Shown here: positions 28,885 through 30,373 of the stretch, piece by piece
Position numbering within the stretch: position 1 is the stretch's first letter
How the letters are laid out: every line of letters begins with the position of its first letter
NCBI GenBank assembly: GCA_964570465.1
Contig: CAZMYG010000001.1
Location: forward strand, 4,174 to 68,173
Reading direction: 5' to 3'
Source of the DNA: an uncultured Planctomycetales bacterium
GTDB lineage: Bacteria > Planctomycetota > UBA1135 > CAZMYG01
DNA: 64,000 bases
Position numbers and translations under genes: made by a program
Notes under the pieces: generated by a model
Told to the model about the DNA's origin: nothing
What the model saw: only the letters and a program-made list of their open reading frames with translations
The model's database searches: none

Positions 28885-28977
28885 CGATTCCCGGCTTACC
28901 GGGAGGGCTGCTAGGGCTGCTCTGCTGAACTCACCACTCAGCAGGGCAGCGCGCTCAAGGCCAATGTGGAGATCAGC

Positions 28978-29274
28978 ATGGAAATTCAACGCAGTCTCAA
29001 ATACTGTGTTTCATACACATATCAAGGCAGACCAGACGATGTCAGCCACTCAACCATAGACCAAACTGTGGCAATTCTTGACACAATAAAAGCTGCTCCT
29101 GAGTGCGGTCGCACCGTCAGGGTCTCTATACATTACGAGAAAAACTATATACATCAAGATTTTATCGAGCGCACCCTCAACCTCTCCAATCCGTATCTCG
29201 ACACTGCTGTCGAGCTTGCCGAGATGCGAGACGATCTTCTTGGATACGAGACCTGCAATGATGGGAGGCCGTGA
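28978..29274 (+). CDS. small protein ending CNDGRP
   Basis: Track ORF 28966..29274; ATG at 28978 has GGAG upstream; stop overlaps next start (GTGATG). Confidence 0.55.
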   Translation: MEIQRSLKYCVSYTYQGRPDDVSHSTIDQTVAILDTIKAAPECGRTVRVSIHYEKNYIHQDFIERTLNLSNPYLDTAVELAEMRDDLLGYETCNDGRP

Positions 29275-29537
29275 TGCGCGTGACTCTTAAATCACCAATG
29301 AGGTACAGCAGCGCTGAGCGTGGCTATTACGATTACGGAGCTGTCGATGAGGCAAGGCTCGCAGAGCTTATCTCAAGCTGGAGGAATAGCTCTCCACAGC
29401 CGAATCGCTGGTTCGCCATCGACATGCCTTACGTTGAGTTTGGAGGCTTCAAGCTTTACCTTGGACCTGACACTCTGCCGGAACATGCTGGTTCGCTAAT
29501 TGATGAAGTCATGAACATAGATGACGGGAGGCCATGA
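29271..29537 (+). CDS. small protein ending IDDGRP (paralog family)
   Basis: 88 aa; similar to 29874 and 30122 products; ATGA coupling. Confidence 0.6.
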   Translation: MMRVTLKSPMRYSSAERGYYDYGAVDEARLAELISSWRNSSPQPNRWFAIDMPYVEFGGFKLYLGPDTLPEHAGSLIDEVMNIDDGRP

Positions 29538-29881
29538 TGATCCACGTAACGCAAGAGCAGTTCGATGAGTGGTCTAAGGACGATCCGACCGCTCTTATGC
29601 TGCTAGCGATCGGCAGGGTCAAGATTCTCACGATCGACGAATTCGCTGAGGCTGCCGACAAGGAGGACGGCATGTCCTATGTCGTCAGGAGAGTCTCTTC
29701 CGGCTCTCCTTACGGTGAGGCTAGCGAGTACAGGACGATCAAGTGCGACACCTGCGGAGAGGAATGCTGGTCACACAAGAAGAGCTACAGAGACTGGCAG
29801 TCGATCGGCTGTCCAGTCAAGTGCGAGGAGTGCTGTGGCGGCATGAATCAGATCATCAAAGATTCGATCTCTTATGAGTAG
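29534..29881 (+). CDS. Cys-rich (zinc-binding-like) small protein
   Basis: 115 aa; CDTCGEECWSH...CPVKCEECCGG. Confidence 0.6.
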   Translation: MMIHVTQEQFDEWSKDDPTALMLLAIGRVKILTIDEFAEAADKEDGMSYVVRRVSSGSPYGEASEYRTIKCDTCGEECWSHKKSYRDWQSIGCPVKCEECCGGMNQIIKDSISYE

Positions 29882-30125
29882 CAGAATATACACTGTCCTG
29901 TTTCCGTCCCAGTACTACGGCACAGAATACAACGTGCGCCGTGACTGGCACGCTAACGAGCTTAAAGATCACCTCGCTGCATGGAATGATTACGGCTGGT
30001 TTGTTTACATCATGCCGATGCTTGAAGTCGATGGTCAGCTTGCTGAGATACCCAGAGGCGCGACACTAGCTGACGTTGAAGAGCTTTACGACAGCATGTT
30101 AGTAGTTGAGGATGGGAGGCCATGA
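29874..30125 (+). CDS. small protein ending VEDGRP (paralog family)
   Basis: 83 aa; shares FPS..(Y/F).GTE...W...GWF...DV...DGRP pattern with 30122 product. Confidence 0.6.
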   Translation: MSSRIYTVLFPSQYYGTEYNVRRDWHANELKDHLAAWNDYGWFVYIMPMLEVDGQLAEIPRGATLADVEELYDSMLVVEDGRP

Positions 30126-30373
30126 TGTACTACATACTCAGGTTTCCTTCTAAGTTTGACGGGACTGAACTAACCATTCGGGAGCCTATTACTGAAAGCG
30201 AGGTCGGCACTTTGTTGTCCTGGTGGCGCGAAAACGGCTGGTTCACTCGAACAAGCCCTCAAGTTCTCGTGTCAGGTGAACTGAATGAGTGGAGAGACGT
30301 TCCGCCAAATGCTCAAGTTGAAGACGTTTACAACATGATCGACGGATTCTGTCTTGATGACGGAAGACCTTAA
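30122..30373 (+). CDS. small protein ending LDDGRP (paralog family)
   Basis: 83 aa; paralog of 29874 product; ends GAC GGA AGA CCT TAA with no overlapping start. Confidence 0.6.
   Translation: MMYYILRFPSKFDGTELTIREPITESEVGTLLSWWRENGWFTRTSPQVLVSGELNEWRDVPPNAQVEDVYNMIDGFCLDDGRP

Follow-up and report, generated by a model that had tools for sequence, protein, structure and literature searches.

Recurrent Asp-Gly-Arg-Pro C-termini at the gene junctions of a phage genome from a planctomycete assembly

Why should a dozen small proteins encoded by one phage end in the same two residues, and eight of them in the same four? The question is raised by a 64,000-nucleotide (nt) stretch of contig CAZMYG010000001.1 (positions 4,174 to 68,173 of the forward strand; assembly GCA_964570465.1 of an uncultured Planctomycetales bacterium), hereafter the window. 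It holds most of one phage genome, all but ~14 kb of the 77.9 kb (source contig, 77,874 bp), with structural and terminase genes together on the minus strand (1-19.5 kb) and a long block of small early/middle genes on the plus strand from 19.6 kb onward. Gene counts rest on a simple home-made gene model of ~103 genes, and coding potential was assessed by a codon-usage score trained on long genes. By this score, all 12 open reading frames (ORFs) that end in Arg-Pro-stop (RP) look coding, 33083-33286 with a weak score; one more mechanical ORF, the 13th (20574-20765, ending ADRP), lacks coding-like codon usage. According to gene calls on Logan metagenome contigs (L031), ATG codons at 28978, 29274, 29537, 30125 and 54576 are the likely starts, not the GTG or ATG codons a few bases 5' of them.

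The original prediction, made from the letters of the window, had listed twelve RP or Asp-Gly-Arg-Pro (DGRP) C-termini by end coordinate, and all twelve are present there. Eight are DGRP-stop ends (21957, 29274, 29537, 30125, 30373, 33286, 38820 and 49880) sharing the motif [N/D/E/T]-D-G-R-P-COOH; the other four (39936 DDRP, 50106 SERP, 51419 ETRP and 55022 DERP) follow a looser form of acidic residue, x, Arg, Pro. A tabulation of C-terminal dipeptides in this genome, which the prediction had proposed, yielded 12 RP-ending genes out of 103, with 0.23 expected from the internal frequency of the dipeptide (Poisson P = 4e-17). DGRP ends eight of the 103 genes against 0.0015 expected, and six families with a DGRP end remain when three paralogs are counted once (P = 1e-20). 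In a six-frame translation of the window, DGRP occurs eight times, always on the plus strand and directly before a stop, never internally. The degenerate DNA pattern GAYGGNMGNCCNTRA has eight matches versus 0.06 expected from dinucleotide-preserving shuffles, and none of the 23 minus-strand genes carries an RP tail. Six of the DGRP tails are followed by TGA and two by TAA; across the 12 RP tails, UGA is used in seven.

A single paralogous gene family comprising all eight proteins was rejected, as length-wide similarity is confined to the tandem paralogs 29274-29537, 29874-30125 and 30125-30373 (blastp E = 2e-14 and ~1e-4; 30-37% identity). The other five DGRP proteins match any member solely in the last 4-5 residues (blastp), and no conservation upstream of position -5 was found across the eight. 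The DGRP proteins are 65-113 amino acids (aa) long, RP-tailed proteins overall 65-177 residues, and Pfam and PHROGs returned no function for the DGRP proteins. In the resolvase 54576-55022 the tail lies beyond the RusA domain (Pfam match ending at residue 140 of 148), and in the protein 21733-21957 beyond a weak phrog_751 match (ending at residue 67 of 74). An AlphaFold model of one paralog has a mean pLDDT (predicted local distance difference test score) of 60, that is, low confidence, with the last six residues the least confident. The tails and their junctions, with Shine–Dalgarno sequences (SDs) where present, are as follows.

21943..21957, plus strand: tail GAT GGA AGA CCA TAA, without SD or overlapping start; gene 21733-21957 (74 aa) ends NDGRP
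29260..29276, plus strand: class A junction GATGGGAGGCCGTGATG of repeat family D5; gene 28978-29274 (98 aa) ends NDGRP-TGA; SD GGGAGG, next start ATG 29274 (GTG 29271 in the same frame), as called on Logan contig L031
29523..29539, plus strand: class A junction GACGGGAGGCCATGATG; paralog 1 (29274-29537, 87 aa) ends DDGRP-TGA; next start ATG 29534/29537
30111..30127, plus strand: class A junction GATGGGAGGCCATGATG; paralog 2 (29874-30125, 83 aa) ends EDGRP-TGA; paralog 3 starts at ATG 30122/30125
30359..30373, plus strand: SD-less tail GAC GGA AGA CCT TAA; paralog 3 (30125-30373, 82 aa) ends DDGRP; the next gene, vWA-like, starts 21 nt downstream at ATG 30395 (plus strand) with its own AGGAGA
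33272..33286, plus strand: tail GAC GGA CGA CCA TGA, ending DDGRP; ATGA overlap with gene 33283-33501
38806..38822, plus strand: class A junction GATGGGAGGCCCTGATG; gene 38560-38820 (86 aa) ends NDGRP-TGA; next start ATG 38820
39922..39936, plus strand: variant tail GAC GAT CGA CCG TAG (DDRP), without overlapping start; gene 39403-39936 (177 aa, phrog_2164)
49866..49880, plus strand: tail GAT GGA AGA CCA TGA; gene 49617/49683-49880 ends TDGRP; next start ATG 49867 (plus strand), inside GATGGA, 14-nt overlap
50092..50106, plus strand: variant tail AGT GAG CGG CCC TAA (SERP); gene 49867-50106; next start GTG 50093 (plus strand), 3' of AGGAG, 14-nt overlap
51405..51421, plus strand: variant junction GAGACTAGGCCGTAATG; gene 51051-51419 ends ETRP-TAA; 1-nt overlap with ATG 51419
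55008..55022, plus strand: variant tail GAT GAA CGA CCA TGA (DERP); RusA-like resolvase 54576-55022; ATGA overlap with 55019-55288
194..208, minus strand: the same ribosome-binding cassette, T-AGGAGG-CC-ATG-ATG, before a structural gene; no DGRP tail encoded

The start of the ORF ending at 33286 is uncertain (33083 or 32945) and its coding potential weak. Overlaps of exactly 14 nt occur in three gene pairs (starts 49867, 50093 and 58414, plus strand), with the start codon within codons -5/-4 of the upstream gene. The ATG inside GATGGAAGACCAT is the start of the ORF at 49867 and also of the one at 21944, which is why each has MEDH as its first residues; the ORF starting at 21944 is not coding-like.

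How much of this recurrence lies in the nucleotides? The tails at 29274, 29537, 30125 and 38820 arise when a repeated ribosome-binding cassette, GAYGGGAGGCCNTGATG, is read in frame, and they lie in a 20-nt repeat, RAYGAYGGGAGGCCNTGATG, present in four copies (family D5). The cassette consists of a perfect SD, GGGAGG, a 5-nt spacer and a downstream ATG sharing one base with the TGA; 3 nt before this ATG there is another in-frame start codon (ATG or GTG), and the Logan contig gene calls independently use these starts. All five 1-nt-overlap (TRATG) junctions on the plus strand, the four above and ETRP 51419, follow AGG-CCN-stop, and AGGCCGTRATG is common to the 51419 and 29274 junctions. Two further RP tails (33286 and 55022) have ATGA overlaps and two have 14-nt overlaps; the remaining three (21957, 30373 and 39936) have no overlapping start, with start codons 22, 21 and 6 nt downstream. 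The prediction had recognized this for 21957 and 30373, and it is also true of 39936. An overlapping downstream start follows 9/12 RP-tailed genes versus 20/67 others (Fisher P = 0.007). The element 5 nt before the ATG is GGGAGG in four junctions and AGG in 51419, which is not so for the GGAAGA and GGACGA tails. The earlier proposal that the tail partly reflects a nucleotide constraint of the start context holds for four DGRP tails plus ETRP 51419. That context had also been placed on the minus strand: the cassette is there but reads AGGAGGCCATGATG (207-194), not GGGAGG. Its upstream gene (206-1129) stops at TAG 208-206, before the SD, and this tail-less copy therefore indicates that the cassette exists independently of the peptide.

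Codon choice extends this relationship to the whole set. Gly in the DGRP tails is encoded by GGR (GGG or GGA) in 8/8 cases (P = 9e-5 versus 31% GGR in internal G-R dipeptides), with GGY making up 61% of Gly codons genome-wide and 69% in internal G-R. Arg in the RP tails is MGR in 12/12 and never CGY (P = 0.005 versus 64% MGR in internal R-P), with CGY at 41% of Arg codons overall and 36% in internal R-P; in 7/8 DGRP tails it is AGR (P = 8e-4). We rejected codon-pair effects as the source of this bias. The tail codons are not drawn from genome usage, and the tails are therefore still tied to the SD cassette. The prediction had given the codons correctly (Arg as AGG, AGA, CGA and CGG, Pro as all four, Gly as GGG and GGA) and had taken their diversity to argue for selection on the peptide; the diversity is real, but the argument was too simple, the codons being SD-like.

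At the sequence level, the full unit can be regarded as established: a junction of the termination–reinitiation type, with an SD read as Gly-Arg in the upstream frame, that has been multiplied within this genome. The junction type itself is a known kind. Overlaps of the ATGA/TGATG form with an SD inside the upstream gene mediate termination–reinitiation coupling (Huber et al. 2019, PMC6728339), and the present locus resembles them in its five TRATG and two ATGA overlaps. In four of these, a perfect GGGAGG lies within the coding sequence of the upstream gene, 5 nt from the ATG. Translation of the downstream gene may depend on that of the upstream gene in the same manner. Unlike in those pairs, one 17-20 nt junction recurs here and imposes an identical four-residue tail on unrelated proteins; Asp and Pro, which are not part of the SD, are conserved, and copies lacking SD and overlap keep the peptide.

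Is the peptide then itself a target of selection? The SD accounts neither for Asp (GAY) nor for Pro (CCN), nor for the four non-SD tails (GGA AGA at 21957, 30373 and 49880; GGA CGA at 33286). So that the peptide would not guide the selection, the 12 nt before every stop codon were compared with GATGGGAGGCCA by Hamming distance. A distance of at most 4 was found for ten gene ends (the eight DGRP ends, DERP 55022 and EGSP 61542), which differ at 18 synonymous nt versus 4 nt that belong to changed codons; the 16 non-gene stops that are equally close, used as controls, have 14 versus 43 nt (Fisher P = 5e-6). A degenerate-pattern scan of gene ends gave eight exact matches, one with one mismatch and none with two, hence no decay continuum. 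The cleanest comparison comes from the three paralogs. Their gene bodies are saturated at synonymous sites (synonymous divergence, pS, 0.72-0.80; non-synonymous divergence, pN, 0.48-0.57). In the SD-less copy (30373), the last five codons have a pS of ~0.9-1.2 and a pN of 0-0.09: every synonymous site of G-R-P has changed relative to the paralogs, with the amino acids unchanged. The two SD-bearing tails are conserved at synonymous sites too (pS 0.30). Both layers therefore act, with amino-acid conservation everywhere and nucleotide conservation where a start follows. This is the check on the last codons that had been suggested, run on paralogs, and it sets the tails (pN 0-0.09) apart from the bodies (~0.5). 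The prediction had further stated that its case would fail if the enrichment vanished on exclusion of overlapping junctions; it did not, as 3/50 genes then still end in RP (P = 2e-4), or two when the paralog is dropped (P = 0.006). Besides the nucleotide constraint, the tail amino acids themselves thus look selected, and the combination of both constraints that the prediction had envisaged is backed by the synonymous-only variation and the paralog comparison.

What might such a peptide do? We tentatively favor a portable junction for translational coupling, of which the tail would be the visible sign at the protein level and whose Asp-x-Arg-Pro nascent end would slow termination. In the full unit, GAY GGG AGG CCN TGA TG, GGGAGG provides the following gene with its SD, and reading the unit in the upstream frame appends ...D-G-R-P to the preceding protein. 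The unit would have propagated among the small early/middle genes by tandem duplication, giving the three paralogs, and presumably also by attachment to unrelated ORFs. Retention of D-G-R-P in copies that are no longer an SD (GGA AGA or GGA CGA) would reflect selection on the peptide, and the selected property would act in cis. A chain ending Asp-x-Arg-Pro on peptidyl-tRNA-Pro would be released slowly at the stop codon and keep the ribosome that is terminating at the junction, from where it could itself re-initiate at the overlapping or nearby start, for which an SD 5 nt upstream of the overlapping ATG would lie at the right distance. As a side benefit, the polycistronic mRNA may stay covered by ribosomes. 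C-terminal Pro is generally a poor release substrate, and Hayes et al. reportedly described in 2002 that nascent chains with a final Pro are released slowly, or arrest, at stop codons. Slow release, a benefit for re-initiation and the route of spread are inferred.

The analogy can be made concrete with TnaC, which ends NILHISVTSKWFNIDNKIVDHRP-stop (UGA), that is, ...DHRP, and in which R23 and P24 at the peptidyl-transferase centre hinder release factor 2 (PMC8450073). The tails, D-G-R-P or [D/E]-x-R-P, likewise have Pro before the stop, Arg at -2 and Asp at -4, a likeness at the level of primary structure. They differ in ending ordinary proteins of 65-177 residues, also at TAA and TAG stops, whereas TnaC is a dedicated 24-residue leader that needs W12, D16 and free tryptophan and controls Rho termination; its upstream tunnel-contacting residues (W12 and D16 at their spacing from P24) have no counterpart in the tailed proteins. 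In Escherichia coli with weakened termination, downstream genes of overlapping pairs are translated more, which the authors attribute to ribosome accumulation at the upstream stop (PMC5373646). Overlapping starts also leave a general C-terminal codon bias, in which NNA is enriched ahead of UGA and, among Arg codons, CGA, AGA and AGG alone are enriched (Weber et al. 2020, PMC7246954). The same Arg codons are used in the tails, plus CGG once, and NNA before UGA creates ATG; those biases are weak and spread across genomes, whereas here an exact pentapeptide under amino-acid constraint occurs on ~8% of the phage's genes.

Several points weigh against a coupling junction with a slow-release end. 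The W12, D16 and free tryptophan that TnaC arrest also requires are not matched here, where conservation ends at position -5. The tails at 21957, 30373 and 39936 lack an overlapping start, so that a coupling role is not obvious for them. With strong SDs and no sequestering RNA structure detected, de novo initiation is possible. C-terminal Pro is generally regarded as costly. The four non-SD tails (GGA plus AGA or CGA) are one transition step from the SD form and may be young. All of the evidence, moreover, comes from a single genome analyzed with a home-made gene model.

Other readings draw on the surroundings of the tailed genes and on their relatives. Four of the tails lie in a block of plus-strand genes (27312..32951).

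27312-28427, plus strand: MoxR AAA+ ATPase, which opens the block
28450-30373, plus strand: six small ORFs, four with DGRP tails, between the MoxR and vWA-like genes
30395-31912, plus strand: vWA-like protein with the metal-ion-dependent adhesion site (MIDAS) motif D-E-S-G-S
To 32951, plus strand: DUF6744 protein, after the vWA-like gene

The link of the tails to the MoxR–vWA pair is positional only. The MoxR–vWA gap holds six small ORFs here versus 0-1 in distant relatives, and the tailed ORFs have no homology to the small ORFs found beside MoxR in relatives. MIDAS residues D340, S342 and S344 of the vWA-like protein are invariant. Within the array, 29537-29881 (plus strand) encodes a 114-aa Cys-rich protein (…CDTCGEECWSHKKSYRDWQSIGCPVKCEECCGG…), possibly zinc-binding, that overlaps the next gene by 8 nt and is the single member without a DGRP tail.

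Close relatives were not found among 50,697 phage genomes (megablast of 6 kb; tblastn of the terminase), where the RusA protein and the 177-aa protein reach a best identity of 36%. The vWA-like protein has no close relative in IMG/VR, in which the 17-mer junction gave 30 single, unrelated matches, and no homologues of the paralog 29874-30125 or the protein 21733-21957 were found among 5.8 billion proteins. Three Logan metagenome contigs carrying the locus are 100% identical to the window, without polymorphism. The best MoxR relative has 47% and the best vWA-like relative 44% identity. Neither DGRP-stop nor any other recurrent tail was found in 68 distantly related MoxR–vWA loci (875 kb), and TAATG junctions of the closest relative encode the SD as E-E or G-V-E. 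These distant relatives cannot test conservation of the motif because they share neither genes nor cassette. The 65 related vWA loci in genome assemblies are almost entirely from Planctomycetota (Gemmataceae, Pirellulales, Planctomycetaceae and Isosphaeraceae), and the host of the phage is therefore probably a planctomycete. MoxR ATPase, vWA-like protein and DUF6744 form a conserved module in ~65 contigs (loci L034, L036, L038 and L040-L104), almost all of them Planctomycetota genomes or metagenome-assembled genomes and many phage-sized (55-90 kb), which suggests that planctomycete phages or prophages include a large group not yet described.

Conservation of the amino acids independent of the SD, on at least six unrelated small proteins and never internally, is also what a C-terminal tag acting in trans would produce: [D/N]-D-G-R-P-COOH as a short linear motif recognized by some protein of the phage or of its host, with its SD use secondary. 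We consider this rather doubtful, whether the reader would be a protease or adaptor timing the removal of early proteins, a chaperone or the adjoining MoxR ATPase/vWA (MIDAS) pair, or whether the tail would be a cap shielding small proteins from carboxypeptidases. A tag better explains the SD-less and non-overlapping tails, including the three without an overlapping start, and the tails lie beyond folded domains and are predicted to be unstructured. Four tailed genes sit between MoxR and a vWA-like protein with an invariant MIDAS (D340/S342/S344), MIDAS sites bind ligand carboxylates, and a trypsin-like peptidase is encoded at 55989-57335. A pure peptide constraint, however, does not predict SD-like codons so far from genome usage, nor does the tag fit the significant association with overlapping starts (P = 0.007). 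DGRP is unlike any known bacterial C-terminal tag, Pfam detected no PDZ or other C-terminus-binding domain, and the 68 related loci without such tails indicate that the MoxR–vWA module does not need them. The ssrA tag ...LAA for ClpXP and the acidic SSB tail ...DDDIPF, a docking site, share with the tails a short, unstructured, conserved C-terminal peptide, on unrelated proteins (ssrA) or for docking (SSB); the present tail is acidic-Gly-Arg-Pro without a hydrophobic end, encoded in each gene and entangled with an SD. A degradation tag of the ssrA/ClpXP C-motif type does not fit, the tail not being non-polar and …LAA-like. Distinctly unlikely, in our estimate, is the fuller proposal of a phage-specific address tag on 8-12 small early/middle proteins, read in trans, whose Gly-Arg codons were co-opted as a ribosome-binding site. 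If true, the reader might be a protease or the MoxR–vWA machine of the phage, and in the latter case the metal site of the MIDAS would be completed by the Asp of the tail; unrelated early proteins would be handled or removed as one set, and a single 17-nt module would be both tag and translational coupler.

The peptide could conversely be functionless and merely hitch-hike on a successful ribosome-binding cassette that took a few neighboring bases along when it was copied, whether by duplication, by gene conversion or by recombination between short homologies at gene boundaries. The SD-less tails would then be young decay products in which so far only the most frequent changes (G to A at third positions) have occurred. 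The non-SD tails use otherwise rare codons and are indeed separated from the SD form by exactly one transition in each codon (GGG to GGA, AGG to AGA), three of the eight DGRP tails belong to tandem paralogs, the minus-strand cassette has no tail, and the tails are add-ons beyond domains that are missing in relatives. The general C-terminal bias toward NNA-UGA and CGA/AGA/AGG Arg codons from overlapping starts (PMC7246954) points the same way. We nevertheless judge this reading unlikely. The old paralogs (pS saturated, 30-37% identity) keep the non-SD GA(Y) and CC(N) in 3/3, and the SD-less copy kept its peptide through changes at every synonymous site. There is no continuum of amino-acid-changed copies (eight exact, one with one mismatch, none with two), the ratio of synonymous to non-synonymous differences is far from that of the controls (Fisher P = 5e-6), and similarity ends at ~20 nt, which excludes recent copying of larger segments. 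Very improbable is a nucleic-acid element whose reading frame is incidental, be it an RNA hairpin (ATGG-NNNN-CCAT), an mRNA site for a protein or RNase, or a DNA recombination joint. It would account for the 4-bp inverted repeat ATGG/CCAT in GATGGRAGRCCATGA and for the position of the unit at gene boundaries, where module exchange is tolerable. However, the repeat is broken without compensation in 29537, 30373, 33286 and 38820 (GAC or CCC/CCT), 90-nt windows give folding z-scores of -1.8 to +1.7 with no shared structure, Rfam finds nothing at the junctions, the 17-mer had merely single, unrelated matches in IMG/VR, and variation falls on third positions of one frame, the other two not being conserved. 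The hairpin was accordingly rejected, with pairing not maintained, no structure predicted and a single conserved frame. Inspection also led us to reject prfB-like +1 frameshifting: only CCC-TGA (38820) can re-pair, and the +1 frame stops after five codons.

Further features of the plus-strand block were recorded beside the tailed genes. A tRNA-like gene (38486-38557, plus strand; Rfam 36 bits, not called by ARAGORN) has an 8-nt anticodon loop (CUUUCAAU) and, judging from this loop, could decode GAA/GAG (UUC), UGA (UCA) or a quadruplet. There are 2 nt between its end and the ATG of DGRP gene 38560-38820, which for this reason has no SD of its own. A tRNA-Gly(TCC) at 40572-40642 (plus strand) reads GGA and GGG, the sole Gly codons of the DGRP tails and the SD-embedded codons. 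ARAGORN calls a tRNA-Met(CAT) at 35403-35476 (plus strand) that Rfam does not report at gathering score, and 34529-34598 (plus strand) is a weak Rfam tRNA match (32 bits) with an odd anticodon loop. The peptidase protein at 55989-57335 (plus strand; 423-448 aa) carries its trypsin-like domain (Pfam Trypsin_2, E = 2e-13) ahead of ~230 C-terminal residues without a family match. A gap of ~490 nt 3' of the first DGRP gene (21958-22443, plus strand) holds a GT-rich run (gtgtgtgtgggtgtggggtgggcgtgtgtgggg near 22200-22235), C-rich stretches and two GAAAAATTTTTTT tracts, and looks like a regulatory or origin-type region. G-rich repeats with GGCAGGCNNGG form three clusters at 40920-41120, 44250-44740 and 46100-46510 (plus strand), between genes or at gene edges, one of them a 39-nt tandem array (46412-46506). 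This sequence has nine matches in the window versus 0.63 expected, eight of them in the plus-strand clusters, which may be protein-binding iterons or regulatory repeats.

To our knowledge, drawn from general reading and the literature cited here, neither the recurrence of one exact junction, nor an identical, amino-acid-conserved pentapeptide on ~8% of a genome's genes, nor the resemblance of such tails to the TnaC end near the peptidyl-transferase centre has been described. An SD in the upstream gene with a stop/start overlap is textbook and normally thought to leave weak statistical traces at C-termini. In this phage lineage, which is probably of Planctomycetota and about which almost nothing is known, one such junction became a repeated module that writes an identical tail with its own amino-acid conservation. 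Should D-x-R-P slow release as in TnaC, the unit would represent a naturally occurring, portable coupling cassette that joins a nascent-chain signal to an SD, of interest for work on re-initiation and as a part for synthetic biology. A tail read in trans would instead represent a new type of viral C-terminal tag. In both cases, the locus offers a clean, small system for separating mRNA-level from peptide-level constraints.

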